Source: a virus
Taxonomy: Duplodnaviria; Caudoviricetes
Length of the DNA: 26,353 bases
Direction: 5' to 3' (one strand)
IMG/VR virus record: IMGVR_UViG_3300048598_000020
Coordinates: 1 to 26,353 of that record
The position numbers and the translations under genes are program-made. The notes beneath the pieces are model-generated. The model ran no database searches. It saw only the letters and a list, made by a program, of their open reading frames with translations, and was not told the origin of the DNA. Of the stretch, positions 1,656 to 18,028 are shown piece after piece; the stretch's first letter is position 1; the number at the start of each line of letters is the position of its first letter.

Positions 1656-1840
1656 ACCAAGAGATTGTCACACAATCTCGCTTGTGCTACTGTCTTTGCT
1701 TCTGTTCTGCAAGTTTCTTCAATCTATCAACATTCTATCAAGGCCACGGACTGTAGATGCAAAAACTCGGTTTTGCAGAGCTTCACACGAGAAAATTTCT
1801 CCTGATCTGTTTTTTTTTCTTACATGTAAAACAGTCCTAT

Positions 1841-1866
1841 AACCCCCCTAACCCCCCACAACCCCA
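1841..1866. repeat. Three tandem C-run units (AACCCCCC-T-AACCCCCC-AC-AACCCC)
   Basis: Read directly: aaccccccta accccccaca acccca. Confidence 0.8.
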
Positions 1867-1945
1867 CTTAATTCAGGTACATTTGTCAAGTTTTTACTGC
1901 TCATATGTACACTACTGCTTATTTGAGTAACATTTTGAGTGTTTC

Positions 1946-2157
1946 AAACGCGTAAACGAATCAGTACAAAAATAGTCTACAATAGAAACATTTTGAACCA
2001 CATATAATAGAGTATTTTGTAAGTTGTTTACGCGGCGTTTATATCCGCCAACCTAGTTACACAATAGGATTAGTAGATAAATGCAAAGCAGAATCGGGCA
2101 TTCTGCCATGAATCGGGCACACATTCGGGCATTTTGCCCGTAAACAAAACGTAAACA
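1946..2157. repeat. Imperfect long inverted repeat plus short iterated motifs; candidate replication origin
   Basis: CGCGTAAAC 1949-1957 / GTTTACGCG 2026-2034; inner TACAAAAATAGTCTA / TAGAGTATTTTGTA; CGTAAACA at 2139 and 2150; TCGGGCA three times in 2091-2131. AT-rich, non-coding, upstream of helicase/primase. Confidence 0.5.
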
Positions 2158-2205
2158 TATGCTACAGAATTCTGTACTTATATTGGCATACTACTCGCTT
2201 TATAT

Positions 2206-2314
2206 GTTGTTGTCTGAAGCTCATGCCCGAGCATCAACGACTACAGCCGCAAGGCTAGCCTGGTATGTATGTAGTGATGGGGCATCGTCACTACCTCTAC
2301 ATACCAGGCTTTTT
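2206..2314 (+). ncRNA. Structured leader RNA 1: kissing-loop hairpins with terminator-like end
   Basis: GCTC-[ATGCCC]-GAGC (2219-2232, extendable outward); AGCC-[GCAA]-GGCT GNRA hairpin (2245-2256); AGCCTGGTATGTA-t-GTAGTGATG-[GGGCAT]-CGTCACTAC-ctc-TACATACCAGGCT then TTTT (2257-2314). Confidence 0.75.
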
Positions 2315-2334
2315 GTTTTCTCCAAAGGAATTAT

Positions 2335-4260
2335 ATGACATTACAAGAATTAGCTGATAAAGGCGTCTTTACAAAAGAAGCATTAGCAGCAGATAAACGC
2401 GCAATGATATCTAATATCAATGCTGGTGTAGATCCACACATGGGGTGTGTTGCGTGGATCAATAATAGAGATAAGTACATCGACGAGCTGGGGTTCGCGC
2501 CTACATTAAAAGATCTATTGTCTGTGAATGTTAATACGATTGCTGGTATAGATTATATTGATAACAAACCAATAAACACAGCAGCTAGATTAGCAAAACA
2601 AGCTGCCGATCTACTAGTTAGACTAGGTCCTGGATTTACGTTATCCCAAATTATTGATGCATTGACTCCTCCAGATGTTGATAAAGATCCACATGACATG
2701 GGTACAATAAATGACGTCTCAGAGCAAGTGCTAGATGCGTGTGGAGTGGAGTACAATTATGCTAAGTCTAAATATCGTAAGCGTTGTGTTGATGCTCATG
2801 GTACTGTTACTTATGTTGACCTATCTCCTGACACGTTTGCCACAGAAGCTCTAGTACACGCGGGAGTCTTCGCGGTGCAGTCTGGATCCCCCTACAGCCC
2901 TAAGCTTGTATTGGACAACATCCAGCGCATCCAAAATGAGCGCAGAATTAAAGACATCCAAGATCTGCAACAAGAGCTACATTATGATCCAAGGTATATT
3001 GACTTTGCTGACTCGTATTTGCGTCAAGAGTATGCCTACATGCAGATTAATGAGCCTATAGATTGTTTTCTGACTGTCAGAAAACAATGGCTTGGTATGA
3101 TCAAGCGTAGTCTGTACAGCCTCGGTTGGGGTAACTGGTATAACATATGCCTTGCTTACAAAGGTCGTCAGGGCATAGGCAAGAGTATGTACTTCAAAAA
3201 AACTCTCGAACCTTTGTTTCGTACCATGCTTAATATGTCAGCAACTATGACAGATATTTGTGATGAGCGGAGTGCAGACATGCTGCAGAACACCTTTGTA
3301 ACTATACTTGAGGAGCTGTCTGTAAACGATCAGATAGAGCGTGCAGGTACCCAAGCTACACAAGCCGCTGCACAGCTTAAGAAGGTTCTGACGAGCCAGC
3401 GCTTGACACGTCGCAGGCTCGGTACACACGTACAAGACGAGATTGAGATCAAAACCGTCTTTGCATCTGTGGCTAATGTCGACCTAAATGATGTTGTTAT
3501 GGACCAGACGGGTATGCGTAGATTTTTCCAGCTCACCTCATTAGCCACAGAGCCATGGTATGTCAAAAATCCAGAAATGGCTGCAAAGCTACAAGATGCT
3601 GATAAGGTTATAGGTCTATTTCGCGGAATTGACGAAAATCTACCACAAGGTTACTGGTATCCTGGATGCGATACTTGGGACGAGATTGCAGCTATACAAG
3701 ATACATATATCAGGCACAGTGACGCCTGGGAGTATCTGCAGGAGCACTGGGCACCAGACCCAGAAGGAGCTGTAAAACTTGCTGATATGCACGCTGACTA
3801 TCTACAATGGCGCAAAAAAGGTGGAGAAGATAAATCGTTTCCGCTTGCCCTCAACAGAGGATTCCCACGCGAAGCTCTTGCATTATATGGAGATGATGTA
3901 CGTGTGCACGTTAATGGGCAATCTAGATACCGTCTCAAGCGCATTAAAGAGACAGCATCACTGCCAGTCTGGACTCCTGGCCTAGGAGCGCCAAAGGCAC
4001 CTGCTACGCCTTTGCCCATCAGCTTCCAGGATTTTACCAATCCTGCTACAACCAAGCCTTTGCCTCCTCCTAAGACGGTGGCACAAGCCCAGGCCCAAGT
4101 AGTAACAACAACACCGGAAGCTGGTCGTCCTCCTGTACCAGACCTTAGTAATACACCTGTATCAGATCTAGCTGTTCCTGGGCACGCTTTTGACGATATT
4201 CCTATCAACCTCTTACCTGCTGATCTTCGCATTGACCCACGCTTCTCACAAGGCTTTTAA
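2335..4260 (+). CDS. VapE-like / SF3-type P-loop DNA helicase with Pro-rich C-terminal tail
   Basis: Walker A GRQGIGKS, Walker B TILEEL, FASVAN and DQTGMRRFF (D.TG.RRF typical of VapE family); AAGGA RBS upstream. Confidence 0.85.
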   Translation: MTLQELADKGVFTKEALAADKRAMISNINAGVDPHMGCVAWINNRDKYIDELGFAPTLKDLLSVNVNTIAGIDYIDNKPINTAARLAKQAADLLVRLGPGFTLSQIIDALTPPDVDKDPHDMGTINDVSEQVLDACGVEYNYAKSKYRKRCVDAHGTVTYVDLSPDTFATEALVHAGVFAVQSGSPYSPKLVLDNIQRIQNERRIKDIQDLQQELHYDPRYIDFADSYLRQEYAYMQINEPIDCFLTVRKQWLGMIKRSLYSLGWGNWYNICLAYKGRQGIGKSMYFKKTLEPLFRTMLNMSATMTDICDERSADMLQNTFVTILEELSVNDQIERAGTQATQAAAQLKKVLTSQRLTRRRLGTHVQDEIEIKTVFASVANVDLNDVVMDQTGMRRFFQLTSLATEPWYVKNPEMAAKLQDADKVIGLFRGIDENLPQGYWYPGCDTWDEIAAIQDTYIRHSDAWEYLQEHWAPDPEGAVKLADMHADYLQWRKKGGEDKSFPLALNRGFPREALALYGDDVRVHVNGQSRYRLKRIKETASLPVWTPGLGAPKAPATPLPISFQDFTNPATTKPLPPPKTVAQAQAQVVTTTPEAGRPPVPDLSNTPVSDLAVPGHAFDDIPINLLPADLRIDPRFSQGF

Positions 4261-4261
4261 T

Positions 4262-5137
4262 ATGCTATACAAGACTAATAAGTATGCCAAAGAATGGCAG
4301 CAGTACACGCAAGACCAGGCTTGGGATTACTTCTTTCAAATTTTGCCTCAACCTATAAGCGTAGACAAAGACAACTGCCCTGTATATATGTTTGCCCATG
4401 CAGACGGTGACAGGCACGACATATCTACCTGCACAGACATCTATGCCATCTTACTAGACTACGAGGACGGTACTACTCCAGAGCAGTTTGTCAGGCAGTA
4501 CAGCGATTTACAGGCTTACTGGTACACTAGTAAGTCACACACACCAGCTAGCCCAAGGTTTCGTGTTGTACTCCCTCTAATGGAGCCTATAGCCTATGAC
4601 ACTATACATAACCCAGAAGCAAAGGCGGCTCTGCAGCAGTACTTTCCTGGCAATGACGCTACATCTTATACTAATCTACAGTGTGTACCTAATAGAGGAC
4701 CCTACTATGCCTGGGGATACAATCTAGGAGAGTGCTACAGCCTAGCCAGGATCAAGCCTATACTGGAGTCACCTGAGTTCAAGTGCCAACGGCGCTCAAA
4801 TTTGAGCGCCCTGAACTCTGTATCTGAGTACAAGCGTGTAGACGACTATACCTCTTATGCCTGTGCTGTGCGTAAGGCGCACCTGGACAAACTTCAAACG
4901 CTCCCTAGAGCTGCTGGGCAATCTAGCTATAGCGAGTATTGTAGCTTGGTAGGATCAATGTTACGGGTACACGCTAATGGCCAATGGATCTGGGAGCCCC
5001 AAGACATCATTAACACCGTGTACGCCTGGAGACCTGAGCCAAGCATATACAAGATGATCTGTAACTTTGCTTCAAGGCGGCTCCTGTTGCCGCCCCAGAA
5101 GCCAGCGGTAAAGACATTTTCTGGGCTTGGAAAATGA
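4262..5137 (+). CDS. Primase/polymerase-like (AEP-type) protein
   Basis: ILLDYEDG and YTSKSHTPASPRFRVVLPL resemble phage primase N-terminal motifs. Start set at the in-frame ATG 4262, right after the helicase stop, rather than 4190. Confidence 0.7.
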   Translation: MLYKTNKYAKEWQQYTQDQAWDYFFQILPQPISVDKDNCPVYMFAHADGDRHDISTCTDIYAILLDYEDGTTPEQFVRQYSDLQAYWYTSKSHTPASPRFRVVLPLMEPIAYDTIHNPEAKAALQQYFPGNDATSYTNLQCVPNRGPYYAWGYNLGECYSLARIKPILESPEFKCQRRSNLSALNSVSEYKRVDDYTSYACAVRKAHLDKLQTLPRAAGQSSYSEYCSLVGSMLRVHANGQWIWEPQDIINTVYAWRPEPSIYKMICNFASRRLLLPPQKPAVKTFSGLGK

Positions 5138-5712
5138 CTATGCGATCAAAAGTAAGCATTGTGCAAGGCGTTGGTATTAATGACGCAACTACTTCTGTAT
5201 ACCATAAGGGTTTTCCAAATGCAGATTACGCAGCATGGTCCGATATGTTAATGAGATGTTATTGCGAGACATATCAAAAAAGCTATCCAACATATAAAGG
5301 GTGTAGCGTCTGTGCAGAGTGGTTAAGGTTCTCAACATTTCGAATATGGTATAGTACAAACTATAAGGAAGGGTTTGAATTAGATAAAGACCTTCTTGTA
5401 CCGGGAAATAAGGTATACTCACCAGACACATGCCGATATGTCCCACATTACATCAACTCATTGTTGTTGTCTAGTAATTCTCGTAGAGGAGAATATCCAT
5501 TAGGTGTGTCGAAAAGCTACAATCTATACTTAGCGTCTTGTCGGTCATCTACTGGCAAGAGACTTACACAGACGTTTTCGACAGTTGATGAAGCTGCTTC
5601 CTGGTACAAACAAACCAAGAAGCGAGTAATCAAAGAGCAAGCTATCCAGGCTTTCCTAGACAACGCGATCAAGACAGATGTTTACTTGGCTCTCGTAAGA
5701 CGTGAGTTCTGA
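5134..5712 (+). CDS. HNH-like homing endonuclease (copy 1)
   Basis: GVGIND, W..ML.RCY, YPTYKGCSVC.EW..F, LDKD...GNK.YSP..C..VP..IN pattern of a common phage HNH-like family; ATGA overlap with the primase stop. Confidence 0.8.
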   Translation: MTMRSKVSIVQGVGINDATTSVYHKGFPNADYAAWSDMLMRCYCETYQKSYPTYKGCSVCAEWLRFSTFRIWYSTNYKEGFELDKDLLVPGNKVYSPDTCRYVPHYINSLLLSSNSRRGEYPLGVSKSYNLYLASCRSSTGKRLTQTFSTVDEAASWYKQTKKRVIKEQAIQAFLDNAIKTDVYLALVRREF

Positions 5713-5736: not shown

Positions 5737-5778
5737 ATGAAGAAAACCCTAGCCAAACTCAATTTTTGATAGTATCTT
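5737..5778 (+). promoter_or_regulatory. Sigma70-type promoter TAGCCA-17-TATCTT with A-rich upstream box
   Basis: -35 at 5750-5755, -10 at 5773-5778; shares ATGAAGAAAA, spacing and TATCTTT with the promoter at 17986-18028; predicted start coincides with the hairpin at 5784. Confidence 0.6.
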
Positions 5779-5783
5779 TTATT

Positions 5784-5876
5784 AAGAGCTGCTGACCCAG
5801 CTCTTCCGGTTAACTCTTGAGGCTCCAAGCCGTCCGATGGTCAGATCGGGCATAAGTCTTGGGGCCTTCTTTTTTT
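5784..5876 (+). ncRNA. Structured leader RNA 2: kissing-loop hairpins with terminator-like end
   Basis: AAGAGCTG-[CTGACC]-CAGCTCTT (5784-5805); AGGCTCCAAG-cc-GTCCGAT-[GGTCAG]-ATCGGGC-ataagt-CTTGGGGCCT then TCTTTTTTT (5820-5876). Confidence 0.75.
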
Positions 5877-5890
5877 GAAGGAACTGAACA

Positions 5891-6187
5891 ATGACTATCT
5901 ACAACATCCAATTCGCACCGACCCTTGAAGACCTTGATGACACTAAGTATGGACTTGCACAGGGTGGTACTGGCGTATGGCGTATTGATGGCGGTATTCG
6001 TGGCAAAAAAGAGATCATCGCCAACATCCGTAAGTACGCTCGGAAGCATCTGCATGAGGCCAAAAAGACTGAGCGTCCTGACATGCCTGATTTCTTTTTT
6101 GTCCGTGCTTACAAGCTGTACTACCTGGACAGCTACACTGGTGCTGGTGTGTGGCAGGCTGCTAATGTCGAGGGAACTATCAAGTGA
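5891..6187 (+). CDS. Hypothetical protein (98 aa)
   Basis: ORF with GAAGGAA RBS directly after leader RNA 2; GTGA overlap with next gene. Confidence 0.75.
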   Translation: MTIYNIQFAPTLEDLDDTKYGLAQGGTGVWRIDGGIRGKKEIIANIRKYARKHLHEAKKTERPDMPDFFFVRAYKLYYLDSYTGAGVWQAANVEGTIK

Positions 6188-6747
6188 GATCAGGTGTTTA
6201 CAGACACGGAATAAACGATGTAAGCGACTTTACTTGGGTGGATGGAAAGATGCCGCGAGATCTTAGAACGTGGTATAATATGCTGGAGCGCTGCTATTCG
6301 GAAAAATCTCACTTACATCGCCCTACCTATGTCGGCTGCTCTGTCTGTCCAGAGTGGTTGTACTTCTCACAGTTTAAGGCATGGTATGACGAGAATTATC
6401 GGGAAGGGTTCCAGTTGGACAAAGACATTTTGGTTCCAGGCAACAAGATCTACTCGCCTGAATCTTGTCGGTATGTGCCTCCATATATAAATAGCCTACT
6501 TCTTGATTGTGGTGCTTCTCGCGGCGAATTGCCCTTAGGCATAGACAGGAATAGGACGGCATTCAGGGCCGCTTGTAGTAATAGACAAGGAAAGAGGGTT
6601 TCCAGAAATTTCGGTACAGTGGAAGATGCTGTCGCCTGGTACAAAGAAACCAAAAAGTGCATCGTTAAACAACAGGCTATCCACGCATTCCTGGCTAATG
6701 AGATTAAGAGTGATGTTTATCTTGCTCTAGTACAGAGGAATTTCTAA
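6184..6747 (+). CDS. HNH-like homing endonuclease (copy 2)
   Basis: Same motifs as 5134..5712 and a closely similar C-terminus (QAIHAFLANEIKSDVYLALVQRNF vs QAIQAFLDNAIKTDVYLALVRREF). Confidence 0.8.
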   Translation: MRSGVYRHGINDVSDFTWVDGKMPRDLRTWYNMLERCYSEKSHLHRPTYVGCSVCPEWLYFSQFKAWYDENYREGFQLDKDILVPGNKIYSPESCRYVPPYINSLLLDCGASRGELPLGIDRNRTAFRAACSNRQGKRVSRNFGTVEDAVAWYKETKKCIVKQQAIHAFLANEIKSDVYLALVQRNF

Positions 6748-8643: not shown

Positions 8644-8777
8644 CGCCTTTTCTTAGCTTTATCGGAAGCAACGTACTCCTTGCCTACTTTGATGCTAATT
8701 CCGGCTTGTTTGGCAAATTTTGGATTATGTGCAGAAATTTGCATAAATCTTTCCTGTTTTTTACTTTTTGATGGCAT
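8640..8777 (-). CDS. Small basic phage protein (45 aa, MPSKSKKQERFMQISAHNPKFAKQAGISIKVGKEYVASDKAKKRR)
   Basis: ATG at 8777 with AGGAG RBS; resembles MPS.S.kQ..FM...AHNp.FAK..G proteins I recall from phage genomes. ORF-track start 8855 is inside the HNH gene. Confidence 0.75.
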   Translation of the reverse strand: MPSKSKKQERFMQISAHNPKFAKQAGISIKVGKEYVASDKAKKRR

Positions 8778-9255
8778 TTTTTCTCCTATAGTACTCTTTT
8801 TCCCAATTGCAATTGCAGCACAATAATTGAACGCGATCTTTTCCAACAACTCCATTTAATATATCGTTAAGAAATTTTGCATTACATTTATTATATTTTT
8901 TCCTATCTGAAGCTCCGTCATCATTAATATGATCAATAGCTAGAACAATTGGATTAGAATTACCACATTTATTACATTTGCCGCCTAAAAACTCAATAAC
9001 TTTTAATCTATGGGCTTCTCTCCACTCAGTTGATCTTTTATCAGATTTACTTTTATTGTTTTGGTAATACTGCTTACGATATTCTATTTTTTCTTCTATT
9101 GTTTTATGTGTTTTAGTTTCCAAAAATTTATGTATACTACATTTTCTACAAATACTACCATGTTCTTTTCTTTTTTGAGAATAATAATCAGCTACTAGAT
9201 CTCTAGATTTATTGCATATTGGGCAAGTGACCGTTATTTTTGACTTACTTGGCAT
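8761..9255 (-). CDS. HNH endonuclease with N-terminal zinc finger (AT-rich insertion)
   Basis: CPIC...CRKC, LGGKCNKCG, LAIDHIN.DG, QLLC.NCN; probable start ATG 9255 (MPSKSKITV), overlapping the upstream small ORF stop; visibly AT-richer than flanks. Confidence 0.85.
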   Translation of the reverse strand: MPSKSKITVTCPICNKSRDLVADYYSQKRKEHGSICRKCSIHKFLETKTHKTIEEKIEYRKQYYQNNKSKSDKRSTEWREAHRLKVIEFLGGKCNKCGNSNPIVLAIDHINDDGASDRKKYNKCNAKFLNDILNGVVGKDRVQLLCCNCNWEKEYYRRKNAIKK

Positions 9256-9340
9256 TCTTCTTAGCCTTGGCGTTATGGGCTTTGCGTGCCTTCTCATCAG
9301 CTTCGTACGCAGCATTACTGATAATTGTAACATTTGCCAT
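9245..9340 (-). CDS. Small basic protein (31 aa, MANVTIISNAAYEADEKARKAHNAKAKKNAK)
   Basis: Read by hand; AAGGAG RBS 6 nt upstream of ATG; fills the gap between 9356 and 9255. Confidence 0.7.
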   Translation of the reverse strand: MANVTIISNAAYEADEKARKAHNAKAKKNAK

Positions 9341-9355
9341 CCTGTACTCCTTGGT

Positions 9356-9934
9356 TTAACCACCTACTACAGATATATATAGGTTTCCGATGTCACCAGC
9401 TGTCATGGTCATTGTTGCTGATGTGGAGAATTGCCAATCAGGAGCATACCCAGGACAATCATTAGATCCACTTAATGCATGTTGTGCAACGTATCGCTCA
9501 CCAACATAAAAATAATAGGTTGTACCAGCAACAAGAGATGGTTTAGTCGTATATGTTTTTGTGATAGTATACTGAGTATAGGATCCAAGCACGGAACCTG
9601 CATTGATAGCAATTCCTGTAGCACCAGAGATACAAGCGTTAGTTACAGGTGTCAGAGTGGTACCTGATAGTGTCCAGATGCCACATATCACATTATTGAC
9701 AGTATTACAATCATGTACCACACTAAACGATGATACACTCATATTGCTTGTAGGCGTATAAGCTGTAAGGTAGGTATTTCCCGAAGGAAGAGCTATCCAA
9801 GACGCCGTAGATGGTGCTTTCCATACAAGAGTGGACCCAAGATAAATGCTTTTAGCAACGCTTGACCCGTAGCCAAGGGATGTTATGCTTTTGGCTACAC
9901 CTGAACTATTAACATAAACAAGTGATGCTGTCAT
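9356..9934 (-). CDS. Putative fibre tip / receptor-binding beta protein
   Basis: N-terminal KSIYLGSTLVWK motif of phage tail-fibre partner proteins; Ser/Thr/Gly-rich; TAATG-coupled to the mini-collagen. Confidence 0.6.
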   Translation of the reverse strand: MTASLVYVNSSGVAKSITSLGYGSSVAKSIYLGSTLVWKAPSTASWIALPSGNTYLTAYTPTSNMSVSSFSVVHDCNTVNNVICGIWTLSGTTLTPVTNACISGATGIAINAGSVLGSYTQYTITKTYTTKPSLVAGTTYYFYVGERYVAQHALSGSNDCPGYAPDWQFSTSATMTMTAGDIGNLYISVVGG

Positions 9935-17985: not shown

Positions 17986-18028
17986 ATGAAGAAAAACTCT
18001 TGACAGAGCCGATTTTCTAGTGTATCTT
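17986..18028 (+). promoter_or_regulatory. Sigma70-type promoter TTGACA-17-TATCTT
   Basis: Consensus -35 at 18000-18005, -10 at 18023-18028, upstream ATGAAGAAAA. Confidence 0.75.

Follow-up and report, generated by a model that had tools for sequence, protein, structure and literature searches.

Does the DNA directly ahead of the replication genes of a phage encode an RNA that controls whether those genes are expressed, and if so, how would it work and in which other phages does it occur? The stretch analyzed here (26,353 nucleotides, hereafter "the window") is a 26-kb partial phage record (Duplodnaviria; Caudoviricetes) that encodes a P22-like coat, a collagen-like tail fibre, an endolysin and several homing-type nucleases. 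A sequence-only reading of it had proposed a cis-regulatory RNA at positions 2206 to 2314, ahead of a helicase gene. We checked the fold and the strain variation of this element, searched for its design in the leaders of related phages, and compared it with known regulatory RNAs.

Structure and surroundings of the element in the window

The element (element 1, plus strand) consists of three hairpins. The 5′ hairpin (H1, 2205..2245) is a longer, irregular stem with the apex GCTC(ATGCCC)GAGC, whose 6-nt loop ATGCCC (2223-2228) is the kissing word; the middle hairpin (2245..2256) has the GNRA-type loop GCAA (2249-2252); and the third (2257..2310) is a predicted intrinsic terminator (-35 kcal/mol) whose tip, GGGCAT (2280-2285), complements the H1 loop. 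Its outer stem of 13 bp (2257-2269/2298-2310) is 100% complementary, and its inner stem of 9 bp (2271-2279/2286-2294) encloses the tip. A U-tract (2310..2319, +), an AAAGGA that is probably a ribosome-binding site (2324..2329, +) and a start codon at 2335, 20 nt past position 2314, complete the leader. The hairpin with the loop ATGCCC, the GNRA hairpin behind it, the 13+9-bp stem with the exact reverse complement in its loop and the U-tract 20 nt ahead of the ATG had all been read from the letters, and each of them is where that reading had put it.

The complementarity of the two loops is not due to chance. A strict scanner found two elements in the window (element 1 and a second one at 5784-5876) and none in each of 60 block shuffles, and the element 1 region is far more stable than its shuffled versions (fold z-score -6.84; 0 of 200 shuffles equal it). 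The loop-loop complement comprises 6 bp and is confined to the loop edges, with no extension even when G.U pairs are allowed. The minimum-energy fold pairs G2280 with U2285, which leaves a GGCA tetraloop, and keeping the 6-nt loop open costs approximately 0.8 kcal/mol more. Promoter scans could not pin a promoter for element 1.

By profile, the first gene behind the element (2335..4260, +) encodes a VapE-like P-loop ATPase (PF05272, 32.1 bits, cut-off 25); this much of the "helicase" named earlier is supported, and we infer from it that the protein is a probable replicative helicase. It is followed by a primase-like gene (4262..5137, +) with matches to PHROG DNA primases, for which homologs were found. 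The closest relatives of the window helicase are only distant (28-34% at best), and neither word searches and peptide patterns nor GenBank phages yielded direct ones. Primase patterns had no match in viral contigs and gave only the sequence of the related phage record G003 in metagenome contigs. The element 1 leader had no phage match in BLASTN (one chance 32-nt plasmid match) and none in the records G001-G004. Since the capsid (87% identity) and the primase (71%) of the window and G003 are similar, yet their helicases (window 2335-4260, L007 1157-2872) align only at the C-terminal end, an exchange of the helicase and its leader as one module appears to have taken place. Elsewhere the window holds three HNH-type genes (two of them phrog_953) and a weakly GIY-YIG-like one (5134-5712, 6184-6747, 8761-9363 and 1164-1655), as well as a strong promoter-like pair, TTGACA-17-TATCTT (17993-18028, +), that opposes the structural operon and is followed by a small unannotated ORF.

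Close strains were compared using contigs assembled from 8 sequencing runs. Inside 2205-2315 they vary at 4 of 111 positions, vs. 17 of 111 in the adjoining upstream stretch (Fisher p 0.005), and none of the four differences falls in either kissing loop. Two are located in the H1 bulge region (2211-2212), and the other two keep the pairing of the terminator stem, one by turning a U.G pair into U-A (2287) and one by turning a U-A pair into U.G (2301). For element 1 this comparison is limited to near-identical strains, among which no ortholog with loop covariation was seen. An ORF that runs over the element (2159-2338) was considered as a leader peptide and rejected, as it loses its ATG in close strains.

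Upstream of the element, three direct and one inverted CGGGC repeats form a cluster at 2093..2140 (no strand assigned), which holds 4 of the 8 TGCCCG matches in the window. Two of the repeats are 8-nt complements of the H1 loop region and, together with a 7-nt complement, are located 98-129 nt upstream; in strains, changes at 2100 and 2131 disrupt the longer match. Candidate roles of the cluster are those of iterons, of an operator or, on a longer transcript, of a competing loop. It does not characterize the family, as only 1 of the 12 elements examined has upstream targets of its first loop. In run X1, one contig matches nothing but the 2093-2140 stretch. Tracts of C-runs or C/G-runs, possibly origin sequences, are present near the helicase leader in the window (1836-1868) and between element and helicase in L020 and L025.

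Occurrence and evolution in related phages

Helicase loci were collected by alignment of 40 of the 150 listed relatives (19 viral loci, one of them a duplicate), by a DNA motif (1 more) and by a second alignment (13 new, one without upstream DNA). The design searched for in their leaders was a 5′ hairpin, an optional middle hairpin, a terminator-like hairpin that complements the 5′ loop, a U-tract, a ribosome site and an ATG. It precedes the helicase in 20 of the 31 phage leaders examined, a count that includes the window and G003 and leaves out two loci with < 100 nt of upstream DNA; the 11 leaders without it include those of the complete records G012 and G016. Among leaders fetched after the pattern had been defined, 10 of 12 were positive, six in the first scan and four on reading (later confirmed), the latter having been missed at first by the U-tract filter and including three near-identical sequences (L077, L078, and L090). 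A uniform scan recovered the design in 14 of 40 leaders vs. 4 of 80 control stretches (p 4e-5), where the 40 include 9 genome-collection loci, the U-tract filter missed 7 known elements, and one case (L041) is doubtful. The loop pairing was also assessed from the side of the terminators: 17 of 48 strong terminators (17 phage records) have a loop complement (at least 6 nt) in the preceding 120 nt and 3 have one downstream, while 2000 permutations gave a mean of 4.8 and a maximum of 13 against the 17 observed upstream (discovery set included).

In total, 22 elements were found in 18 records, with 20 loop words whose perfect complements range from 6 to 12 nt. A ribosome site and an ATG lie within ~15-45 nt downstream of nearly all of them, the predicted terminators range from -17.6 to -35 kcal/mol, and a promoter-like match at or above the 90th percentile of the background is present just upstream of 7 out of 14. 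Other traits vary: the middle hairpin is not constant (GNRA also in L025 and L020, other or none elsewhere), several elements (G003A, G008, G011B, and L082) have a weak H1 or no predicted one, the stems do not align across the whole family, and no nucleotide is conserved family-wide, the best column around the loops reaching 13 of 22 elements. Behind the primase, G006 and G011 carry second elements whose words are unlike those of the first ones. On a quick helicase tree, in which the window sits on a long branch, the positives are scattered and close pairs differ in loop word. The 11 genome-collection loci obtained from a helicase motif (mostly Bdellovibrionota bins) had no convincing element in 9 usable leaders, with L039 and L041 weak, and therefore do not name a host. 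In G008, G011, and G015 an integrase gene lies immediately before the element, and G017 also encodes an integrase. No integrase was seen in G003, G006, G007 and the partial window, and the element thus also occurs outside integrating phages. No CI-like repressor was recognized among the ORFs scanned (at least 60 aa; part of each genome).

Searches against Rfam gave no gathering-level match in the window and 15 related loci other than tRNAs (weak, unrelated ones appeared at E up to 10), in line with the earlier remark that the RNA was not recognized as a named family; covariance models miss the element because almost no letters are conserved. No publication describing such a phage element appeared in searches of the open-access literature. 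The kissing-loop/terminator element is a real, uncatalogued phage RNA element. Some of the records show further features of their own. A tRNA T-arm-like sequence, possibly attP, is located between integrase and element in L020 (upstream of 5268) and L025 (upstream of 5440), and in L020 a tRNA (9058-9129) lies before the second element. L074, L077, and L017 have an extra stem around the terminator that covers the ribosome site on the read-through RNA and suggests a translational layer. L076 and L090 are two different helicase leaders, one per end, of a single record that is possibly a chimeric assembly.

The second element of the window (element 2) repeats the design of element 1 with a different loop pair, CTGACC/GGTCAG. 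Its 5′ hairpin (5784..5805, +) has the loop CTGACC at 5792-5797, and its predicted terminator hairpin (5819..5876, +) has the tip GGTCAG at 5839-5844 and a U-tract of seven T (5870-5876); ahead of it lies the promoter-like pair TAGCCA, 17 nt, TATCTT (5750..5778, +), a consensus match only that is kept in G003. A ribosome site and the ATG (5891) of ORF 5891-6187 follow, for which an atlas search yielded no name. Element 2 had been overlooked when the structure was described as standing ahead of replication genes, a description that holds for element 1, while the family is not limited to such genes. It is located 3′ of an HNH gene, and the block made up of HNH gene, promoter and element has 70% identity to its counterpart before the G003 helicase. 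G003 has two elements, one before the helicase and one after the primase, that share one word. Element 2 and its ortholog before the G003 helicase differ on both sides in 5 of 18 terminator pairs and on a single side in 3 more; no pair is broken, and the loop word is unchanged despite these stem changes. A DNA pattern made for element 2 recovered G001/G003 plus one chance match in a coding region (L011).

The loops themselves change in two subfamilies. In A5, which consists of five alignable sequences (G017, L080, L081, L088, and L091), 7 of 7 kiss pairs have changed on both sides with 100% of the cells paired, compared to 6 of 23 stem pairs, and shifting the loop partners cuts the pairing to 34-45%. 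The column difference in A5 is 0.44 for the kiss, 0.16 for the stems and 0.45 for unpaired positions (both A5 and A7 are small sets of related sequences in which the unpaired columns align poorly), i.e., the loops diverge about three times faster than the stems. In A7 (3 distinct rows), 3 of 7 kiss pairs have changed, and none of the 16 stem pairs shows changes on both sides; two of its members, L074 and L077, have helicases that are 74% identical and a 10-bp terminator stem that is identical, and differ in 3 of 7 kiss pairs. Pairs that require two matched changes normally evolve more slowly than unpaired sites, and kiss columns that change as fast as unpaired ones point to selection for new loop words. 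Such diversification is not universal, as 7 of 231 element pairs share at least 6 nt. The compensatory loop-loop changes in the leaders of homologous helicases, where the sequence-only reading had advised looking for covariation, support the kissing-loop/terminator structure of its cis-regulatory element through relatives, whereas the function is a proposal that we develop below.

Proposed mechanism and its alternatives

The element likely decides whether transcription continues into the replication genes. The reading that we favor, and consider somewhat more probable than all others taken together, is that the leader acts as a ligand-free kissing-loop attenuator, in which the kiss would hold the outer stem of the terminator open and allow read-through into the helicase-primase genes. 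Both stems and the loop-loop pairing are conserved by compensatory change, as seen in relatives, and the sequence predicts that the element is placed at the 5′ end of the transcript, with the terminator at the element's 3′ end. Kiss and complete terminator would then compete, since the linker seems too short for both, as judged from rough geometry and the precedent of the guanidine-IV riboswitch. When helices are taken as straight and folds as predicted, which is a crude model, 16 of 20 elements have a linker that falls short of spanning both stems plus the kiss, and 4 have one that is long enough for both structures. Under the same model, element 1 would need ~118 Å and has at most 72 Å, while with the inner 9-bp stem alone the outer arm would provide enough length. 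A linker too short for kiss and full terminator would mean that a kiss formed on the growing RNA favors read-through. For the guanidine-IV riboswitch, two kissing hairpins have been proposed to stretch the linker and thereby block the outer pairs of the terminator (Lenkeit et al., excerpts of PMC7736828), and smFRET describes a competition in which growth of the terminator stem shortens the linker and hinders the kiss, which loses out unless the ligand is bound (Gao et al., excerpts of PMC11611296). In element 1, the 6-bp kiss duplex (-8.6 kcal/mol) is far less stable than the 13-bp outer stem. Unaided, the kiss may yield just a leak, because the outer stem outweighs it and because the guanidine-IV kiss loses without ligand; perfect Watson-Crick kisses generally form without other factors, according to a review (excerpts of PMC10907184).

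The likeliest input to the attenuator would be its own terminated RNA of ~110 nt, which should expose both loops once the full stem has formed. Once accumulated, the terminated RNA could bind in trans to the H1 loop of newly made transcripts and so shut off read-through, while a protein that favors or breaks the kiss, or a fixed leak, would be alternative inputs. That the terminated RNA acts in trans, providing a timer and a code-specific immunity, is a tentative proposal that we judge possible rather than probable. It would account for the rapid change of the words and for the presence of more than one word in each of three genomes, and it would fit the integrases beside the element (G008, G011, and G015) and the lack of a recognizable repressor among the scanned ORFs. 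Taken as a whole, and put forward just as tentatively, temperate and related phages might carry a single, protein-free RNA circuit: a 90-130-nt leader would be both sensor and effector, its kiss would open the terminator in cis, its terminated product would block the kiss in trans, and its 6-12-nt word would be a diversifying immunity code that changes only by matched double changes.

Among the alternatives, we give most weight to a stand-alone small RNA of 90-130 nt, although this too is unlikely. Its loops would close or oligomerize the finished molecule, which acts elsewhere, and read-through would only be leak. The predicted promoter at the 5′ end and the strong predicted terminator at the 3′ end would suit such an RNA, as would a lowest-energy fold that in most elements has both stems and free loops, and self-complementary loops permit rings or chains; however, the close spacing of ribosome site and ATG behind nearly all 22 elements is the placing of a leader, the family has no sequence conserved for a target or a protein, and no extra genomic targets are found near 11 of 12 elements. 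We rank next, as rather improbable, an OFF switch in which the kiss promotes termination or hides the ribosome site, for which the L5-L13 kiss of the cobalamin riboswitch is a precedent (excerpts of PMC10907184). The ribosome site is never within the kissing loop, though it is covered by the extra stem round the terminator in L074, L077, and L017, the first two of which also have weak U-tracts; and while kiss and full stem can coexist in the 4 elements with long linkers, the 16 others are too short in the straight model and the terminators are strong unaided. Lower still, and improbable, stands an antisense system of the P4 CI/P1 C4 or pT181/pIP501 type, in which flanking targets or a counter-transcript would induce termination. 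The position ahead of replication genes and often beside an integrase, the three H1-loop complements upstream of element 1 and the logic of P4 and pT181 (excerpts of PMC4825925 and PMC5703833) speak for it, but such upstream targets are restricted to that one element, where two of them are weakened by strain changes. Moreover, antisense promoter scores in 14 elements do not exceed background (a consensus scan, which can miss promoters), a helix between upstream sequence and the 5′ arm of the terminator beats shuffles on energy in 2 of 14 elements and on arm pairing in 1 of 14, and Rfam gives no C4 match.

The topology of the element is identical to that of the guanidine-IV riboswitch, yet we regard a metabolite riboswitch of this kind as very unlikely: the 20 loop words are flanked by no conserved nucleotides, and the genes downstream are the helicase and unknown phage genes, not transporters. 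Nothing points to a ligand pocket, since even the best-shared position near the loops is common to just 13 of 22 elements. Hardly any credence is left for chance complementarity or for an inverted repeat or protein site at the DNA level. The CGGGC cluster shares the word, and a DNA site could contribute in the case of element 1, but the empty shuffles, the compensatory changes in relatives, the G.U-tolerant strain changes and the location of the element on the strand of the gene all speak against these readings. Several narrower candidates were rejected: a conserved, extended antiterminator helix (hinted at by truncated folds, no better than shuffles in 12-13 of 14 elements), P4-type flanking targets as a family feature (1 of 12 elements), a tRNA-like RNA (no tRNA call), and an RNA like put of HK022 (no conserved sequence in the family, and nothing from the literature search).

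Relation to known systems and implications

The likeness to P4 CI and P1 C4 that had been suggested from the sequence holds for the placement at replication genes and is not borne out by the rarity of upstream targets, the lack of a C4 or tRNA-like match and the intrinsic-looking stop inside the element. P1/P7 C4 RNA is grouped with the P4 CI immunity type, in which a leader RNA causes premature termination in trans. The closer structural precedent is the guanidine-IV riboswitch (GGAM-1; excerpts of PMC7736828 and PMC11611296), in which the loop of a 5′ hairpin likewise pairs with the loop of an intrinsic terminator. That riboswitch has highly conserved loop nucleotides, binds its ligand and precedes transporters of the sugE/mepA type, whereas the phage element has no such nucleotides, a 6-12-nt word that changes freely and no known ligand, and precedes replication genes (VapE-like helicase, primase), accessory genes and unknown ORFs. 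The cobalamin riboswitch also joins a 5′ hairpin to the hairpin of its expression platform by a kiss (L5-L13), but this kiss depends on the ligand through a bulge (excerpts of PMC10907184), while that of the phage element is perfectly Watson-Crick and comes without an aptamer.

In regulatory logic, P4 CI is similar to what we propose, being a leader RNA of a replication operon in an often temperate element that causes premature termination in trans; it is released by processing and has targets on both sides, seqA and seqC, with which it pairs (excerpts of PMC4825925), whereas the words of the phage element are loops of one terminated RNA, flanking targets are missing in 11 of 12 cases, and the element contains its own stop, a hairpin of the intrinsic type. 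As in pT181 RNAI and pIP501 RNAIII, a terminator (here a predicted one) directly precedes the start codon of a replication gene, but these plasmids depend on a counter-transcript and on a pre-emptor pairing with the 5′ arm of the terminator (excerpts of PMC5703833), neither of which is supported here. The repZ pseudoknot of ColIb-P9 shows that intramolecular loop pairing can activate a replication gene and can be blocked by a loop-binding RNA, with the difference that it uses a separate antisense Inc RNA and translational control (excerpts of PMC8383071), while the partner in the phage element is the tip of the terminator. IsrK of Gifsy-1 is a short, terminated prophage RNA that acts in trans on its own read-through form; it activates translation, and in the excerpts of PMC4825925 loop-loop pairing with a terminator tip is not described for it. 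The phage element would therefore resemble guanidine-IV in shape and, if trans action holds, P4 CI in logic, and it seems to belong to neither.

A kiss on the tip of a terminator is known from a ligand-binding riboswitch class, and a widespread, ligand-free phage version would show that the mechanism is general; it would also offer a minimal system for the steric model, which is itself still just proposed, and be a source of many natural, orthogonal RNA switches. Action of the terminated RNA in trans, if it occurs, would explain how some temperate phages without a recognizable repressor silence their replication genes and exclude their kin, and the specificity of their immunity would be readable from a word of 6-12 nt.
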